A stretch of 64,000 nt of DNA from a virus, in IMG/VR virus record IMGVR_UViG_3300038465_000068, positions 3,053-67,052 of that record; one strand, given 5' to 3'. Shown here piece after piece: positions 2,746-57,422 of this stretch (positions are counted from its first letter, which is position 1; each line of letters opens with the position of its first letter). The notes below the pieces were generated by a model. The model had not been told where the DNA came from. It saw only the letters and a list, made by a program, of their open reading frames with translations, and did not search any database. A program made the translations under genes and the position numbers.

Positions 2746-3824
2746 TCGTCTTTCCCAAAAAGCGGGCCGTGATCCTCGGGCTTGTCGGCGTTCTTTGCCT
2801 TAGCCGATTCCCTCTTGCGCTCGCCAGCGCCGGACGTCAGCAGGCGCACGCGGCGGTCGATGTCCTTGATGAATTTGGCCTCGCGCTCGATCAGGACCGA
2901 GTTGACGCCCTCGCGCCACGCGGCCTCGCCGGTCGTGCCGGTGCCCGCGAACGGGTCCAGCGTCGTCCCGCCCGGCGGCGTCACCAGCCGCACCAGATAT
3001 TGCATCAGGTCCACAGGCTTGACGGTCGGATGGCCGGAGCCGAGTCGGTCATCAGCGTCGGCCTTGGCGGTGTAGAAAAACCGGGCCGCATCAGGAAAGG
3101 CCGCCTGCACTTCCTCGCTGCCATCATGGATTATATCGGCAGGCCAGCGCCCTTCCGGTCTCACAACCTGCTGCGCACCGCCGACAACGGTGGACATGCC
3201 CCACCCATCACCACCTTCGCGCCGGGACCGCTGCATCGTCCGCACCTGCGATGCGTCGGCAGACTCATCAATCGGGACGCGGCACCCCTCTATGTTGATC
3301 GCGCCCGTCCCGTGCTCGGCCAAGTTTTCCGCCACCGTGCCGATCAGAGGTTTGCGCGCCATACAGATTGGCTCCCATGCGGGCTTGAGCGCGGTGCCCC
3401 AGCCTTTCCAGTCGCCCTTTTGATTGTGAGATTTCGGGAAGCCGCTGCCGAAAGCCCACCCGATCTGGTCGCGGATTTCAAAGCCAGCGTCGTCAATCGC
3501 TATGGCCATGCGGTGATAGGTGCGCGTGCCGCTAAACGCCAGCAGGAACGCGCCGGGCTTGAGCACGCGGTACACCTGCACCCAGAACAGTGGATCGAAG
3601 GCGGTGTCGCCATTGTCCCACTTTTCCCCCATGAAGCCGCGCGACAGGCGGGAGTATTGATGATTTTTTGGTTTCTCTTTCGCAGCGTCGGTGTTGCCGA
3701 ACCGCTTGAGCGTGCTGACCAGCGCGTAGGGCGGATCGGTGACGCAGGAGTCCAGCGAATTTTCGGCGATGGTCTTGAGCGCGTCTCGGCTGTCGGCGTG
3801 GATGACTTTGATGTCGGCGGTCAC
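2742..3824 (-). CDS. N6-adenine/N4-cytosine DNA methyltransferase (orphan)
   Basis: DPPY near N-terminus; HPTVKP and LDPFAGTGTTG near C-terminus. Confidence 0.92.
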   Translation of the reverse strand: MTADIKVIHADSRDALKTIAENSLDSCVTDPPYALVSTLKRFGNTDAAKEKPKNHQYSRLSRGFMGEKWDNGDTAFDPLFWVQVYRVLKPGAFLLAFSGTRTYHRMAIAIDDAGFEIRDQIGWAFGSGFPKSHNQKGDWKGWGTALKPAWEPICMARKPLIGTVAENLAEHGTGAINIEGCRVPIDESADASQVRTMQRSRREGGDGWGMSTVVGGAQQVVRPEGRWPADIIHDGSEEVQAAFPDAARFFYTAKADADDRLGSGHPTVKPVDLMQYLVRLVTPPGGTTLDPFAGTGTTGEAAWREGVNSVLIEREAKFIKDIDRRVRLLTSGAGERKRESAKAKNADKPEDHGPLFGKDE

Positions 3825-47925: not shown

Positions 47926-48138
47926 TTGAGATACGCCTATTTGGACGAGGCCCCTGTCGTGTTCACGCTGAATGAGGCGTGGCATTTCGTCGGCGGGGAG
48001 TGGAAGTCGCTGCATCCGGCGGACGCGCACAGCAAGGCGCGGCTGCTATCGAGGGCAGAGTTTGATGCCTATGCGGCCGCAGCCGGTGCCGGGAAGTTGC
48101 CCACCGCCGCTTTCCAGCCCGCCGACAGCGAGTCGTAG
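47926..48138 (+). CDS. small protein overlapping the 3' end of the polyprotein, candidate immunity/antitoxin
   Basis: GAGGAGG RBS at 47902-47908 (in-frame CTG at 47914 or TTG at 47926); globular-looking 70 aa. Confidence 0.6.
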   Translation: MRYAYLDEAPVVFTLNEAWHFVGGEWKSLHPADAHSKARLLSRAEFDAYAAAAGAGKLPTAAFQPADSES

Positions 48139-51100
48139 GCCGGGCGATACACCGCCTGCTGGGCGGCGAACAATTCCGCAGCGCGCGGCGTCTTGGGATC
48201 AAGGCTTCGCCATTCCTTGTATAGATTATGCCCGCCGCCGCCCTTGGGGCTTTTCGCCTCGATCAGGGCAGGCGGTGCGATCAGCACCTCACCGATCTGG
48301 CCGTTCTTGAACTGGACGTTGACGGCGCGGTCGAAATATCCCTCGGCCTTCATCTTGTAGCCCTCGTCAGTTGCCGGGAATTTCTCGGCGAGCGCCTTGG
48401 CGACGGCATTGGCCTGTTCCAGCGTGTCGACGGCGAAGGTGCCGCGCACGATGTCGGTCACACCAGCAGGCGCGCGACCGGCCGCCATCTTGCGCAGCGT
48501 GGCGTGAAAATCTTTCACCAGAACGCGGGGCATTTCCTTGACGCCTGCCGCGCGCCATTGCGTGCCGGTCTCGTCGGCGATCTTGCTGGCGGTCTCGTCC
48601 AGCGTCGCCTTGTTGGCCTCGGCTCCTGCATAGACTTGCTCGATGCTGTGGAGCGGGCTGTTCTTGATCCATATGTCCTTGACGTTGCGCGAGTCGAGCG
48701 GGCCCACACCCTTGTTGCCGGGATTGTTGAGGTGGTCGGCCATGCGCTCATAGGCGTCATCCTCGTCAAGGCTTTCGAGATACGTCGGGCCTTGGTGCGC
48801 GCCATCACCCCACGATTCTGATGAACCGGCGTTGTTGCCACCGCCGGTCCAGCGGCCATCCTCGTCACGCGGCTCGGTCTCGCTGTACTTGGCGAACTGC
48901 TTGGCGAAGGCGCGCGCCAGCATCTTGCGCAGGCCCTTCTCCTCGGCCCAGCCGTCGTTGATCGGCGCGTGCACCTCCGGCCCGAACACCAGCGGGAAAG
49001 CTGGCGGCGTGGTCCCGGTCAGGTCTTTGCCGCCGCTGTCATAGGACAGGGTGACGTGGGTGAGATATTGCGGCCAGTCGTGCGATGCGCCCGCCGCCAT
49101 GGCTTCCTTGTGCCGGGCTTGCAGGTCATCGCTGTGGAAGTGCAGCACGACCGCACCCTTGTCGCCCAGCCCCATGATACCGCGCCGACCGCCGACCGCC
49201 GACACGGTGTCATCGTTCGGCTCCAGCGCCACCGGCTTGCGGCTATAGACCTGCGTGACGTGCATTTCGTGGGGCGGCACGAGATTTGGGATACCAGCGC
49301 GGGACGCCCATGCGTGCAGGCGCTCGGCATTGGCTAGTGGGCGATGGACGTACAGGCTGTCTGGCACGGCCAGCTTGCGCACCGCAGCCAGCGCGCCGTC
49401 GAAGGTGATCGACTTGGTCATGTCCGGGTCGGTGGAGGAAAAACGGCCATGCTCGTCATGGCTGGGGTTGAACTTCGCGACAGCGCCTAGCGCCTCGCCG
49501 AAGGTCAGCGCGCGCTTTTGCGCTTCAAGCTGGGAAGCCCACCGATCCCTAATCCCCCGCCATAGGTCTCCGGCGCTGCGTCCTTGATATTGGGATGGAT
49601 CGGATGCAATGGCCGCTTCGTAAGCGGCGCGTCCTCGTGCCCGCTGGTCGGCGTCGGTTCCTGTCCCTTCGTGGTCTCCGATGAACTCTGCATGACCGGC
49701 GGTCCTTGTGGCGTCGACATTGTGGGCAGCGGCAAAATCACCGACAGCGTGCCCAAGGGAGCCGTCAGTGTCCACCACCAGAACGCGGGTGCCGGAGGTG
49801 CTGGGAACTAAGGTGTGGAACCCGATGCCTGCTTTCAAGAGGGCGGCATGGGTTTCGGCAGGCTGGCCGGGCACCGTCAGGTCATACAGGGCGTGTGGCC
49901 CGTCCTGCGCCTTGTTGAACACAAGGACGGCCTTCTGGTTGGCGAGGTGGCCCTTCATCACCGTGGCCAGCCGCAAGGCTGCTGGGCTCGCTGTGTCGCT
50001 CTCCGTGAGGGTGGCGTTCTCTGCACCGTCCGACCATGCCCCGATCACCCCGGCCTGCTGGCTGACCAGCCCCAGCCGGTTGTCGATGTCCCGGGACATT
50101 GCCTCAAAAACCTTCTGGCGCGGCCCGGACAGGTCGTGCACCGCGCCGCCGAAATCCTTGTCGTGGATGCTGGCGCTGGCGAACGCCATGCCTGTCCACT
50201 TCCCGTCCTCGTCGCGGGGCTGATCCGGGTCGAATTTCTCGATGTGCCCGTCCACCGGGATCACGATGTAGAACGTAAGCGGCGGCCCGACCTTGCCGAA
50301 CAACAGCTTCTCGGCCTCCTTCGCTGACAGCGGCTTGATCCATTCCGGCTTAATCGGGCCAATGTGCCGCCACGCCGGATTTTCCCCAGTGAACGGATTG
50401 GGCTCAAACCTTTCGTCGGGTTTGACGTTGGGCGATTCCTCCGGCGGCAGGGTGACGCGCAGCAGCACAGGCTTCGTTCCGGTTTGCTCGGCCGCGTATT
50501 CGGCAAAGCGCGCTGCAACATCGGGGTACGGCGACATATAGACGGACATCTTGCGGTCGCCTGCCATCATGGTCTCGCGGGGCATGCCGCGCTCAATTCC
50601 CCACTTGTCAGCACCTTCGCCCTTGTGCGGGATCAAGCCCTCTTTCTTGATCGCCGCCAGCGCAGCCTTCGCGGTGCCGTGATAGAACGTGCCGCCGCCA
50701 GCCCAGCGCCCATGGTCATCCCGCTCCTCGTCGGGGTTGAACTTGCGCACGGCCGCCAGCGCAGTAGCGAAGTCCATGGCAGGCGTCGGGCTGGGCGGCG
50801 GCTTTGACAGCCAGTGCGGCAGCTTGTGCGCCATTTCCATTTCCAGCACGTCGATATTCAATTTGCCGCCGCTCTCCCACACGCCGCCATCAGCCTTGGT
50901 GATCGGCGAACTTTTGAAGTCCGGCGCGGCATCCTTCCATGCGTCCCACTTCTGCCAAGCCGTGCCCATCACCACAATCTCGCGCTCGCTCTGCACATTC
51001 TGGCCATAGACCGGGACGGACAGGATCGCGGTGCGCGGCACGCTGGCGCGCAGCACAACGCGGGTTTCATTGTCCGGGTGGAAGCCGACGCCACCCCAGC

Positions 51101-53282
51101 CGTTTGCCACGCTGCGGGTCGCTGTGGTGGACATCGCGCCGTTTCGCATGACGTTGATCTCGGGCAGCTTGGTGAAGCCATCGACCCGGACCTTCGGTGT
51201 CGCAGCAATGTCTTTGCCAGACAGCATGACGCCGCGATAGACCTGCACCACCGGCTTGTCGGCCTTGGCGAGGAGATACTGGGTGGTCTCCCACTTCGCG
51301 CGGACATAAGCCTTCACGCCGTCATAGCCGCCGACGTTGGCAAAGATGGAGTTGGCGTCGCTCTTGATCGAGTTGAGGTCATCGGTGTCGAAGTGCGCGA
51401 CGTTCAACCGGCCGCCCATTTCCTCGGCGGCGGCGACTTGCAGGATGCGGCCGTTGGTGCCGCTCGACGATTCCTTCCAGCCGCCCCAGACCTTTTCGTC
51501 GGTGTTTTTGATGTCCTGCATCGTCGGCTCGTCATCGCTGGCCGACCCTGACAGCGCGATCTTTTTGATCCCGCGCGCGCGCATCAGTTCCTTCGTCCGG
51601 CTCTGCGACAGCGCCTCGGCGAGGTCATGGGTGCGGCTGTAATCCTCGGAGTCGACGCTGCCGTCCTCGCTGTCACCGCTGGATGATGTCAGATATTCGT
51701 CGGACAGATTGTTCTGGGCGAACTTGTATTTATCGTCGTCGTCCGTGCTGTCCCAGCTTTCTTGAATCGAGGACTTGGCGGCATCGGCAAGATAGTCTGG
51801 CGGGTCCATGTTACCGGCGCGCTTGTCGCGCTCGATGGCGAAGGCGTCTCTGATCTTGGTGTCGAGACCTTCGCGCATTTCCTGCGTCAGGCGGTCCTGC
51901 GGCTTCTCCGGCTCGACGCCAACAAAGTTCGGATCGGGGTCAAAGCCTTCCGGGCTGTCGAGGGAACTGCCGCCGAACTCCACGCCACTATGCTTGTCGA
52001 GCCTGTCGCCACTGGTATTGAGCGTGATGGCGTCGTCCAGTTGCTCGACCGTGAACGGGATTTTCTTTTCGCCATCCTCCTCGCGGTCATCGAAGTGCTC
52101 TTGGATCGCATCGCGCAACCACTGGCGGCCCTTGTCGCCGCCGGTTTCGTTGTCGGCGATGTCGGTGGCCGCGTCCTCTGGCGCTTGGTTCTCGCGCCAC
52201 TGGTTTTCCTGATAGTCCACCTCCTGCTGGAGATTGTTTTCGAGGTACGCCTCCTCGGCCTTCGTCTGCGCATCACCTGTCAGGCCATCCCAGTCCGTCG
52301 CCTTGCCATCGCTATCGCCAACAGCGTCGCCGATGGGCTCGACGTGCTCCGGCATGTCGACGTGCAGCGTTTCCTTGCTGGGAAAGAACTCTGGAAATCG
52401 CTGGTCGACCTGCGCAAATTTCATGTCGTCAGAAAATGCGTCAAAGTGCACCCCAGCCTTCAACTCTGCCGCATCGGTGAAGTCTGGAACTTTCATGTTG
52501 AACACATTCTCGGCAGCGGCATGGTCAAAGGCGATTTTCGCCGCGCTCGCCAACGCAATGCGGTCATGCGGGTCCATGCCAGGATAGGCGTTAGGATCGA
52601 GTGTGATGTTGCCGGAAGTGTCGACCGATAGCGCGCTGCCGAGCGTTTTATAATCCGCCAGTTGTATATTGTTGCCGTTCGTAACAGTCAGCATATTCGC
52701 CCCGCCGCTGGACATGCCGGTGCCACCACCACGCGCAGCAGTCAGCGCGCGCATTTTCCAGTCATCAATCTGAAATTCTGCTCCCGGTACTACGCCTTGG
52801 AGCGTCTGCATCCTCGGGTTTTTCACGAGATCGGCGATAGCAACAGCCTTGCCTGGGCCGCGCTGCCAGTCGGCGTTCATTTGATATTGAAAGTCGGTTA
52901 TGTTGCGGGCGATGTAGTTAATGCGGACAGCCGCCTTTTGCGGCGCGGTCAAATCGCCAAAACCTTTCGGGTCTTTGCTGAAATCGGCGGGTGCGGTAAG
53001 CCGCGCGGTCAGCTTTTCGAGGTCAGGTTTCACGCCCTGAAACTGGCGCTCCATGCGGACAGCGGCGTTCTTGTTCCACTCGTCGCCGCCGACGTCGGTG
53101 ACGCGGGCATCCAGCGCAGGCTCGCCACCAAGGCCGGTGGCCGCCGCCACGGCAGCACCGCCTGCGCCGCCGCCGCTGGCAAATTCGCCGCCCTGCGACG
53201 TCCCAGCAGGCTCGTGGTTCGGGTTATACTTGTGGAGAAGGGACGCGGCGGCCATGGCCTCGTCGAATGTCATCGCCCCCAC
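48069..53282 (-). CDS. multi-effector polyprotein (two ART-like domains, unknown domain, Acb1-like 2H phosphoesterase, RelA/SpoT-like domain)
   Basis: YRG/MSTT/EREIVV; FYHGT..IKKEGL; HVTQVYS/HVTLSY; DIVRG/GYFD/GEVLI/HNLY; repeated linker motif. Confidence 0.85.
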   Translation of the reverse strand: MGAMTFDEAMAAASLLHKYNPNHEPAGTSQGGEFASGGGAGGAAVAAATGLGGEPALDARVTDVGGDEWNKNAAVRMERQFQGVKPDLEKLTARLTAPADFSKDPKGFGDLTAPQKAAVRINYIARNITDFQYQMNADWQRGPGKAVAIADLVKNPRMQTLQGVVPGAEFQIDDWKMRALTAARGGGTGMSSGGANMLTVTNGNNIQLADYKTLGSALSVDTSGNITLDPNAYPGMDPHDRIALASAAKIAFDHAAAENVFNMKVPDFTDAAELKAGVHFDAFSDDMKFAQVDQRFPEFFPSKETLHVDMPEHVEPIGDAVGDSDGKATDWDGLTGDAQTKAEEAYLENNLQQEVDYQENQWRENQAPEDAATDIADNETGGDKGRQWLRDAIQEHFDDREEDGEKKIPFTVEQLDDAITLNTSGDRLDKHSGVEFGGSSLDSPEGFDPDPNFVGVEPEKPQDRLTQEMREGLDTKIRDAFAIERDKRAGNMDPPDYLADAAKSSIQESWDSTDDDDKYKFAQNNLSDEYLTSSSGDSEDGSVDSEDYSRTHDLAEALSQSRTKELMRARGIKKIALSGSASDDEPTMQDIKNTDEKVWGGWKESSSGTNGRILQVAAAEEMGGRLNVAHFDTDDLNSIKSDANSIFANVGGYDGVKAYVRAKWETTQYLLAKADKPVVQVYRGVMLSGKDIAATPKVRVDGFTKLPEINVMRNGAMSTTATRSVANGWGGVGFHPDNETRVVLRASVPRTAILSVPVYGQNVQSEREIVVMGTAWQKWDAWKDAAPDFKSSPITKADGGVWESGGKLNIDVLEMEMAHKLPHWLSKPPPSPTPAMDFATALAAVRKFNPDEERDDHGRWAGGGTFYHGTAKAALAAIKKEGLIPHKGEGADKWGIERGMPRETMMAGDRKMSVYMSPYPDVAARFAEYAAEQTGTKPVLLRVTLPPEESPNVKPDERFEPNPFTGENPAWRHIGPIKPEWIKPLSAKEAEKLLFGKVGPPLTFYIVIPVDGHIEKFDPDQPRDEDGKWTGMAFASASIHDKDFGGAVHDLSGPRQKVFEAMSRDIDNRLGLVSQQAGVIGAWSDGAENATLTESDTASPAALRLATVMKGHLANQKAVLVFNKAQDGPHALYDLTVPGQPAETHAALLKAGIGFHTLVPSTSGTRVLVVDTDGSLGHAVGDFAAAHNVDATRTAGHAEFIGDHEGTGTDADQRARGRAAYEAAIASDPSQYQGRSAGDLWRGIRDRWASQLEAQKRALTFGEALGAVAKFNPSHDEHGRFSSTDPDMTKSITFDGALAAVRKLAVPDSLYVHRPLANAERLHAWASRAGIPNLVPPHEMHVTQVYSRKPVALEPNDDTVSAVGGRRGIMGLGDKGAVVLHFHSDDLQARHKEAMAAGASHDWPQYLTHVTLSYDSGGKDLTGTTPPAFPLVFGPEVHAPINDGWAEEKGLRKMLARAFAKQFAKYSETEPRDEDGRWTGGGNNAGSSESWGDGAHQGPTYLESLDEDDAYERMADHLNNPGNKGVGPLDSRNVKDIWIKNSPLHSIEQVYAGAEANKATLDETASKIADETGTQWRAAGVKEMPRVLVKDFHATLRKMAAGRAPAGVTDIVRGTFAVDTLEQANAVAKALAEKFPATDEGYKMKAEGYFDRAVNVQFKNGQIGEVLIAPPALIEAKSPKGGGGHNLYKEWRSLDPKTPRAAELFAAQQAVYRPAYDSLSAGWKAAVGNFPAPAAAA

Positions 53283-56471: not shown

Positions 56472-56531
56472 TGGTGTCCCGCTCTGGAAAGTGATGCGGA
56501 CAATCTGGCCTGATTTGGCTGGCCGAGCAAG

Positions 56532-56604
56532 TGGTGGACGGGCCGAGGAGTCGAACCTCGTTTCCCCGCGCCGATGGCGTGGGGCGCGTCCCGCCGCGCC
56601 CGCC
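56532..56604 (-). ncRNA. 73-nt tRNA-like RNA with aberrant D and anticodon arms
   Basis: Acceptor GGCGGGC/GCCCGTC, T arm CGAGG-TTCGACT-CCTCG, 3' ACCA. Confidence 0.7.
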
Positions 56605-56613
56605 TTGAATTTC

Positions 56614-56696
56614 TGGTGCGGCGAACTTCGCCATTTCCACCCTGCGCGCGCTTCCGGCCGGATCATGCGCAAAGGCCCGCCTTGCGGCTGGCACCA
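56614..56696 (-). ncRNA. unidentified structured RNA (multi-way junction, ends CCA)
   Basis: TGGTGC/GCACCA closing stem with three internal hairpins. Confidence 0.5.
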
Positions 56697-56701
56697 CCTC
56701 G

Positions 56702-56790
56702 TTGGTGGGCGCTCGACCATCTGCGCCTCCTCCGGTTTCCCGGCACCTGTTTGCCGCCTTCACGCAGCGGGTCTAAATCGGCGACACCAA
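56702..56790 (-). ncRNA. unidentified structured RNA
   Basis: TTGGTG/CACCAA closing stem; CCGG-GAAA-CCGG hairpin. Confidence 0.5.
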
Positions 56791-56801
56791 ACTGAAATAG
56801 T

Positions 56802-57102
56802 TGGCGGCTTTCTGTTGCCCGGAGGCCGCCTGCACCGCGCATCAACGCCGTTAGGCGGCGATGCGGACTTCTTCGTTGTCGTTGACCTTTACGGTCCTGC
56901 TCGCCTTGGCTTGCGCCGTTTCGATCCGTATCCAGCCGTCGATCCTGTTTCGCCCCCGTGCGCCGCGCATAGGCATCGAACCTATCTCCCTGCCCAGCAT
57001 GGCGGGGCCGCCTCACCTTGAGGCTTGTTCGCGGCTTGGTGGAGGCGGCGGGCATCGCATCCCGCGTCCGGTCAAGTCGTAATCGAAAACATCAGCTTGC
57101 AG
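56802..57102 (-). ncRNA. ssrA: two-piece (circularly permuted) tmRNA
   Basis: Acceptor piece ends GGACGCGGG..CCCGCCGCCTCCACCA (57037); coding piece starts GGGGGCGAAACAGGATCGAC (56957); G3-U Ala pair; tag VNDNEEVRIAA* at 56886-56851. Confidence 0.92.
56961..57035 (-). ncRNA. tRNA-like element inside the tmRNA intervening segment
   Basis: GCCGCG/CGCGGC acceptor, D arm GCCT-CAAGGTG-AGGC, T arm ATAGG-TTCGATG-CCTAT. Confidence 0.7.
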
Positions 57103-57109
57103 TTCGTGA

Positions 57110-57138
57110 GATATAGGACCGGATGGCCTATGCGTCAA
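57110..57138 (-). promoter_or_regulatory. promoter of the RNA operon with operator 57113-57131
   Basis: TTGACG-N17-TATATC; ATAGGAC-CGGAT-GGCCTAT. Confidence 0.8.
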
Positions 57139-57422
57139 TACCGAGGCTGGCGCGTTATACGCGGGTACCTCGCTCGCCGGGCCGTTGTCATAAGCCCCCC
57201 AGCCCCTCGATGGCGGTGGACGAGCGAGGTTCATATCACCACAAATTCAAAGCCTTGGGATGACATGCACAAATCGGCATACGAAATATGCGCCGGATTA
57301 TGCGTCAGGCCGCTTTTGCCGACGGGTGCTGAATACCAGTAGCGCGACGATGATCCAGAACGTGTGCATGACATTTCGCCCACCCAGAGGCCGTATAACG
57401 CGGGCCGGGCAGTTATCGGCAC

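Follow-up and report, generated by a model that had tools for sequence, protein, structure and literature searches.

A tRNA-shaped module in the intervening segment of a phage two-piece tmRNA gene and its possible place as exchangeable cargo

The removal of the spacer from permuted (two-piece) transfer-messenger RNA (tmRNA) genes is poorly described, and a spacer that is itself shaped like a transfer RNA (tRNA) and begins one base after the encoded CCA poses the question of a double RNase P cut. Such a spacer lies in IMG/VR virus record IMGVR_UViG_3300038465_000068, an uncultured virus contig of 67 kb with an estimated completeness of 70%, of which we analysed positions 3,053 to 67,052 (64,000 nt; hereafter the window, positions being counted from its first letter). 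The original prediction, made from the letters alone, saw in this 79-nt intervening segment (IVS) a tRNA-like gene nested within the tmRNA, and proposed that tmRNA maturation releases a second RNA or that the cloverleaf recruits RNase P or RNase Z. In this study, we favour with moderate confidence a different answer, in which the spacer is an exchangeable slot that is filled here, as cargo, by a degenerate, non-decoding tRNA-shaped module, either derived from a tRNA or a mimic of one. The spacer most probably represents such exchangeable cargo and not a novel route to tmRNA, because the relative of this phage and most other phages do without the cloverleaf.

The gene is an alpha-type circularly permuted tmRNA gene on the minus strand, with its acceptor piece upstream of its coding piece. 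Two Rfam models align with it over their full length, RF01849 (57142-56799, 74.7 bits against a gathering threshold of 50) and RF04321 (57091-56851, 70 bits against 47), and ARAGORN at -ps80 also yields the permuted layout. In the acceptor stem formed between the two pieces GGGGGCG pairs with CGCCUCC, which gives the G3.U70 alanine identity pair and is followed by ACCA, where the discriminator is A57040 and the CCA occupies 57039-57037. The tag frame (56886-56851, minus strand) reads VNDNEEVRIAA plus a stop codon. Its resume codon, GUC (Val), is unusual in that alpha-type tmRNAs usually have GCN (Ala); the same codon is found in the relative described below. The parts of the gene and of its spacer are as follows.

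57037..57103 (5' end approximate), minus strand: tmRNA acceptor piece with 3' end ...CCUCC-A-CCA, from the RF01849 and RF04321 alignments
57036..56958, minus strand: IVS of 79 nt, consisting of linker A57036, the tRNA-shaped module and a CAC tail (56960-56958), from direct reading and folding
56799..56957, minus strand: tmRNA coding piece, beginning GGGGGCGAAA with G+1 at 56957, from Rfam, ARAGORN and direct reading
56962..57035, minus strand: cloverleaf, from the ARAGORN -ps80 drawing, the minimum free energy (MFE) structure and pair probabilities
57035-57029 and 56968-56962, minus strand: acceptor strands of the cloverleaf, six Watson-Crick pairs plus A.G (the A7.G66 mismatch)
57025-57009, minus strand: D arm, loop UCAAGGUGA with GG, from ARAGORN -ps80
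57008-56992, minus strand: anticodon-like arm, loop GCCAUGC with CAU at 57001-56999, from ARAGORN -ps80
56991-56986, minus strand: variable region of six bases, from ARAGORN -ps80
56985-56969, minus strand: canonical T arm AUAGG-UUCGAUG-CCUAU, followed by GCGCGGC, the 3' strand of the closing stem

Folded alone, the IVS has a four-way junction of -37 kcal/mol as its MFE structure. The cloverleaf remains a domain of its own when the entire 344-nt precursor is folded, with pair probabilities of 0.94-0.98 in the acceptor stem, 0.65-0.99 in the D arm, 0.62-0.89 in the anticodon arm and 0.90-0.98 in the T arm, and with a mean probability of only 0.005 that an IVS base pairs outside the IVS. Thus, the coordinates first given for the segment (56958..57036) proved exact on direct reading, and its nearly complete cloverleaf fold was recovered both alone and within the precursor. 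The T arm, with its 5-bp stem, 7-nt UUCGAUG loop and G53-C61 pair, abuts the 3' strand of the acceptor stem as the T arm of a tRNA does. On the D side the ARAGORN drawing has three nucleotides, not two, before the D stem and no base at position 26, and the MFE structure favours a 6-bp D stem with a 3-nt loop. The anticodon arm has C33 instead of U33 and C.U at 31:39, and pairing of G32 with C38 and of C33 with G37 can shut its loop to a CAU triloop, while at the 3' end the discriminator G is followed by CAC, giving GCAC and not CCA. The details named beforehand, that is, the GG of the D loop, the T loop, the GC-CAU-GC loop with C33 and the missing CCA, were therefore all present. One nucleotide lies between the CCA and the start of the cloverleaf, and 3-4 nt separate its end from the RNase P site of the coding piece, a geometry that fits cutting by tRNA-end enzymes on both sides.

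Nevertheless, the segment is no tRNA gene and no working decoding tRNA. ARAGORN labels it tRNA-Met(cat) (57035-56960) at -ps80, leaving it uncalled at -ps90 and at default, and the general tRNA model RF00005 has no match at E <= 10 in the whole 67-kb record. The best match of clan CL00001 to the IVS alone is tRNA-Sec, whose model aligns from end to end (positions 1-91) with 15.9 bits against a gathering threshold of 47; the E-value over all 4227 families is 0.42, which arithmetically amounts to about 1e-4 for each of them. Since no tRNA model accepts the segment, calling it a tRNA-like gene was an overstatement. It is better described as a tRNA-shaped module, which was probably either derived from a tRNA or moulded by the same constraints. 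Three alphaproteobacterial matches of a 21-mer spanning the T arm and acceptor strand were considered as its source and rejected, as ARAGORN calls no tRNA there and their flanks read as protein-coding sequence.

The comparison with a relative is the first of two lines of evidence for an exchangeable slot. The sole independent relative in the collections searched is L098, a complete phage genome of 66.8 kb (L099, L023, L079, L100, L101, L105 and L106 are one identical sequence with it), whose head protein and terminase are 69% identical to those of the window. By hand count on the alignment, the mature acceptor part is identical in 64 of 67 columns, from CUGCAAGC to CCA, and the coding piece in 100 of 107 columns from G+1 to the stop codon. 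In contrast, the IVS of L098 is 119 nt long against 79 nt and is unalignable, a forced global alignment giving 54 identical columns among 120 gapped ones; all that it keeps is a T-arm-like hairpin, GGGG-UUCGAUU-CCCC. With the mature parts near-identical and the IVS unalignable, the mature tmRNA is under strong constraint and the spacer has been replaced wholesale. The original prediction had named a fold that is not conserved as what would refute it, and the cloverleaf is indeed absent from L098, which weighs against a required role. Other searches led back to the same sequence: an exact 25-mer of the acceptor piece hit two metagenome contigs, both identical to L098, and no bacterial genome, and searches with the head protein and terminase returned only those same two viral contigs. 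Among cultured phages, blastn with 56500-57200 as the query retrieved nothing. Proteins 55-65% identical to the head protein also occur in Logan assemblies (P0003-P0011), and the comparison of spacers covered L098. A 299-nt contig of run X5 was rejected as a relative, for it matches generic tmRNA ends only, its similarity stops at 56958 and it is too short.

The second line of evidence comes from the spacers of other viruses. A conserved 21-mer of the alpha-type coding-piece start seeded 96 viral loci, in 93 of which the retrieved flank reached the acceptor end, L034, L092 and L095 being set aside; including the window, the set holds 94 IVSs, 66 of them unique. These span 5 to 293 nt and have very diverse interiors, yet a helix of 6 or more contiguous pairs closes 59 of the 66, most often with 10 (16 IVSs), 11 (15) or 12 pairs (9). 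Its offsets from CCA and G+1 are (1,5) in 41 and (0,4) in 14 of the 59. Of the 66 spacers, 32 have TTGAT as their 3' linker, 61 have T immediately before G+1 and 37 have T immediately after CCA. With offsets of (1,4), the window fits the frame of 0-1 nt after CCA and 4-5 nt before G+1, but it is without the usual 10-12-pair clamp, the TTGAT-type linker and the U at -1 of the coding piece; it is the sole surveyed IVS with a GCAC tail and has C before G+1 where 61 of the 66 have T. T-arm-like hairpins occur in three of the 66 IVSs, those of the window, L023 and L005. Rfam finds the hairpin only, and no full cloverleaf, in L098 (the same sequence as L023) and L005, with RF01684 matching just the T-arm hairpin in each (12.5 and 13.3 bits, respectively).

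A survey of other phage two-piece tmRNA spacers had been proposed as a check, and on this point too a required role for the cloverleaf was not borne out, most spacers having a plain 10-12-bp clamp helix. Because the L098 spacer is unrelated and most phage IVSs use such a clamp, the cloverleaf is not needed for tmRNA maturation. It is at most one of several interchangeable fillings of the slot, and is probably tolerated since it preserves the frame. This fixed frame and its freely exchanged contents make the slot a possible carrier of small extra RNAs or peptide genes.

Two further observations were made on the surveyed spacers. In viral loci L002-L097 the clamp is roughly as long as a tRNA acceptor-plus-T minihelix. 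And, the long spacers (132-293 nt) of L064, L007/L049, L039/L071, L058, L022/L057 and L035 contain open reading frames (ORFs) of 33-93 codons. Two hydrophobic frames of 38 codons, those of L039 and L071, are alike as protein though their DNA differs, and thus it is suggested that real small-peptide genes sit in the spacer slot of these loci.

Bacterial RNase P accepts minihelix and tRNA-like substrates, and CCA-containing precursors are trimmed by 3' exonucleases. A possible route for the precursor of the window can be built on this. With its 7 positions, the acceptor stem would stack on the T stem of 5 bp to form a 12-position rod in place of the usual 10-12-bp clamp. RNase P would then cut 5' of G57035 as well, leaving an acceptor piece that ends in ...ACCA-A, from which 3' exonucleases would trim the extra A, and a second RNase P cut at G56957 would free a tRNA-shaped RNA of about 78 nt. 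The freed RNA would be a by-product or optional cargo, being neither a decoding tRNA nor needed for maturation, although a function of its own is possible. Published accounts, in the parts that deal with processing, report that cleavage of the two-piece tmRNA precursor of Orientia takes place in the connecting loop (PMC7335160), that the IVS is absent from mature tmRNA (PMC11915505), that the IVS of Hodgkinia is covered by few reads (PMC6581868), and that the tmRNA 5' end is made by RNase P (PMC3985003).

Several points weigh against this reading of the spacer as a slot with tRNA-shaped cargo. RNase P cleavage at G57035 is purely our inference; the base at -1 of this G is A, whereas U follows the CCA in 37 of the 66 IVSs, and the module ends in GCAC and not in RCCA. 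The closing stem has just 6 contiguous pairs, which places it in the shortest class of the survey. The source tRNA was not found, the 21-mer spanning the T arm and acceptor strand having no viral match. ARAGORN at -ps80 calls two of the 56 unique viral IVSs of at least 60 nt, those of the window and L023, against 0.65 per shuffled set, a difference that is not significant. The one independent relative is too few for covariation to bear on selection or origin of the cloverleaf, and the listed runs that hold the locus include no RNA run.

A second cloverleaf is located downstream on the same strand (56532-56604, minus strand), about 195 nt from the 3' end of the tmRNA and about 350 nt from the IVS. 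Its acceptor stem has 7 bp and its T arm (CGAGG-UUCGACU-CCUCG) is perfect; the anticodon arm, which has C33, closes to a triloop of AUC, and the 3' end C-ACCA is encoded. At its default threshold ARAGORN labels this cloverleaf tRNA-Asp(atc), whereas Rfam gives it 16.1 bits as tRNA-Sec and no RF00005 match; its MFE is -40.4 kcal/mol (z = -2.3). It was not found in L098, and a 28-mer search returned no viral match. This element might be an anticodon-less tRNA-like or mini-tmRNA-like RNA. Aligned with each other, the two cloverleaves agree in 36 of 80 columns, which is no evidence for common descent.

Among the alternatives to exchangeable cargo, the one that survives best, unlikely as we consider it, is that the excised cloverleaf is a functional second RNA, which would be stable, receive CCA and act alone, for example as a decoy for host factors that bind or cleave tRNAs, maybe together with the second cloverleaf. 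The presence of two same-strand cloverleaves, both with a perfect T arm, C33 and an anticodon arm closable to a triloop, fits this idea, as do the encoded ACCA and the default ARAGORN call of the second one. Nested RNA modules are also on record in phage ssrA genes, such as the glutamine riboswitch described for phage Melnitz (PMC9004378). However, no RNA run is among those listed as holding the locus, and the two elements are alike in just 36 of 80 columns. Moreover, neither of them is kept in L098, where ARAGORN at default calls nothing and the sole RF00005 match, a partial one of 13.7 bits, lies elsewhere in the genome.

It is rather unlikely that the cloverleaf is a required processing signal, selected to recruit RNase P or RNase Z for precise cuts, with tmRNA maturation depending on it. 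The part of the recruitment proposal that stands is the placement, 1 nt after the CCA and 3-4 nt before G+1 and the RNase P site. The 12-position stack of acceptor and T stems, moreover, equals the usual clamp length, and an IVS that has lost the long clamp and the TTGAT tail would need something else to define its cuts. Against a required role, L098 matures a near-identical tmRNA with a different spacer that lacks the fold. In addition, 41 plus 14 of the 66 spacers use the plain helix frame, spacers of as little as 5 nt exist, and the tRNA-like domain of tmRNA itself already presents G+1 to RNase P, as the relevant part of one report describes (PMC3985003).

Distinctly unlikely, in our opinion, is a fold that arose by chance, in which the closing stem is always present, a GC-rich interior of 62 nt often makes two or three hairpins, and the T arm is coincidental, with no tRNA ancestry or handling. 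The shape taken as a whole is in line with chance. The fold energy of the IVS has a z-score of -2.2, with 5 of 200 shuffles equally stable. When the closing stem was kept and the 62-nt interior shuffled (n = 2000), a three-branch MFE structure appeared 195 times and an energy of -37 or better 130 times, and 7 of 44 real viral IVSs of 60-120 nt are three-branched as well. At -ps80 ARAGORN makes 91 calls in the window, where random Markov-1 sequence averages 74.5 per 64 kb, and at -ps90 4 against 3.6, the IVS being absent from these four; none of the 56 unique viral IVSs of at least 60 nt is called at -ps100 or -ps90. The silence of RF00005 and the loss of the cloverleaf in L098 point the same way. 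The T arm is what a chance fold does not explain: a 5-bp stem with a UUCGA loop and G53-C61, set exactly against the closing stem, was seen in 0 of the 2000 interior shuffles, and its chance is about 5e-6 per position as estimated from base composition. The GG of the D loop, the tRNA-like total length of 75-76 nt, the end-to-end alignment of a tRNA-family model and the UUCGAUU hairpin in the otherwise unrelated IVS of L098 also speak against coincidence. Thus, the cloverleaf shape does not exceed chance, and the abutting canonical T arm is the only feature that is clearly beyond it.

A broader idea, which we regard as quite improbable, is that phage tmRNA spacers are a general release cassette in which the clamp mimics an acceptor-plus-T minihelix, RNase P cuts on both sides and phages make small RNAs alongside tmRNA, both cloverleaves here being tRNA decoys. 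The clamp is a conceivable mimic because it has 10-12 bp and, in most cases, U at -1 on both sides. If the idea were true, the cuts would free whatever the slot holds, with hairpins, tRNA-shaped RNAs without anticodon loops and possibly small-peptide transcripts as candidates, and the excised cloverleaf and the second one (56604-56536 without its encoded 3' end) would as a decoy pair act against host factors that bind or cut tRNAs.

That the spacer holds a functional elongator tRNA whose anticodon CAU would specify Met or, once modified, Ile is hardly credible, for although the 7-nt loop GCCAUGC has CAU at its centre and an intact tRNA-Ala in a tmRNA spacer has been described in print (PMC11915505), the near-universal U33 is replaced by C33 next to a G32/C38 pair, C31.U39 and A7.G66 are mismatched, three bases separate the acceptor and D stems with none at position 26, RF00005 has no match at E <= 10 and ARAGORN makes its call only at a noise-level setting.

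Exchangeable cargo is thus the reading we retain, and the surroundings of the gene bear on who carries it. Terminase, portal and head-morphogenesis genes lie directly upstream of the tmRNA on the same strand, so the tmRNA is phage-borne and not part of a host flank. The locus is present in DNA runs of peat and permafrost metagenomes, and contigs of four DNA runs match the window with no differing letters and no indels. A 30-protein alignment of the head-morphogenesis protein led to 80 more distant loci (L107-L186), 24-48% identical. Among these 80, ARAGORN found none with a tRNA or tmRNA, which is a weak blank because ARAGORN at default also misses the tmRNA of the window; the alpha tmRNA start motif was found in none of the 80, and Rfam at gathering thresholds returned nothing in the 19 that were scanned. 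As it was not found in these more distant relatives, the tmRNA is, on such sequence comparisons, an accessory gene gained by a small clade.

The region just upstream of the acceptor piece contains the following element.

57110..57138, minus strand: promoter-like TTGACG (57138-57133), 17-nt spacer and TATATC (57115-57110), from direct reading

It aligns with the first 35 positions of the Rfam alpha_tmRNA model, and L098 has the same layout. A scan for consensus promoters and terminators returned nothing, TTGACG-17-TATATC being left uncalled because the final base of its -10 hexamer is C. Downstream of the tmRNA, three short blocks read from the printed sequences are kept in L098 (56787-56770, 56752-56743 and 56731-56705, minus strand). 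Between them lie hairpins of differing sequence, two of which have GNRA-type loops (CCGG-GAAA-CCGG versus CGGC-GCAA-GCCG), and the last block contains GGAGG...ATG. An Rfam search of the 56787-56705 blocks gave no match; they could be an RNA element or the leader of a small gene. Farther away, the ORF at 48069-53282 (minus strand, 1737 aa) has an Acb1 anti-CBASS (2H phosphodiesterase) domain at residues 1309-1447 (Pfam PF23474, E = 1.7e-34), which PHROGs labels 'RNA ligase', and the remainder of the protein is without a family match.

tRNA-shaped signals at the end of another RNA are known from the MALAT1 mascRNA and MEN-beta (RF01684) and from tRNA punctuation, all eukaryotic or organellar, where the cleavage was shown by experiment and the fold is conserved. 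Like these, the module described here is a tRNA-shaped fold directly after the 3' end of a functional RNA, and an RNase P cut would both make that end and release a small tRNA-like RNA. Unlike them, its fold is not conserved in L098 and its cleavage is predicted only.

The closest framework is the IVS of alpha-type permuted tmRNAs (RF01849, RF04321), the alphaproteobacterial type of which was reportedly treated by Keiler, Shapiro and Williams in 2000. The segment shares with it the position between the encoded CCA and the G+1 of the coding piece, and its closing stem, too, begins 1 nt after the CCA. What sets it apart is a full cloverleaf with a canonical T arm, a stem of 6 pairs and a GCAC tail, where most viral spacers have 10-12 pairs and TTGAT. 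A phage-borne two-piece tmRNA gene of alpha type with an extra structured RNA is also found in Melnitz, whose ssrA gene, as far as its published description goes, carries its module in the 3' domain and belongs to a known riboswitch class (PMC9004378), whereas the module of the window sits in the spacer and stays below the threshold of every curated family. In the open literature, leaving aside subscription papers and the supplements of PMC11915505, we found no description of tRNA-like spacers in phage tmRNAs. Taken by itself the case of the window is weak, being a single sequence that is sub-threshold as a tRNA and not conserved, and a similar case is already in print. The permuted tmRNA of GCA-2688965 sp002688965.2 has an intact tRNA-Ala in its IVS, which the tmRNA database paper of 2025 terms a 'unique feature' (PMC11915505). 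Both genes have a tRNA-shaped unit nested in a permuted tmRNA spacer; compared by that description, the unit there is an intact tRNA-Ala, whereas the one here is phage-borne, non-decoding and fails every tRNA model.

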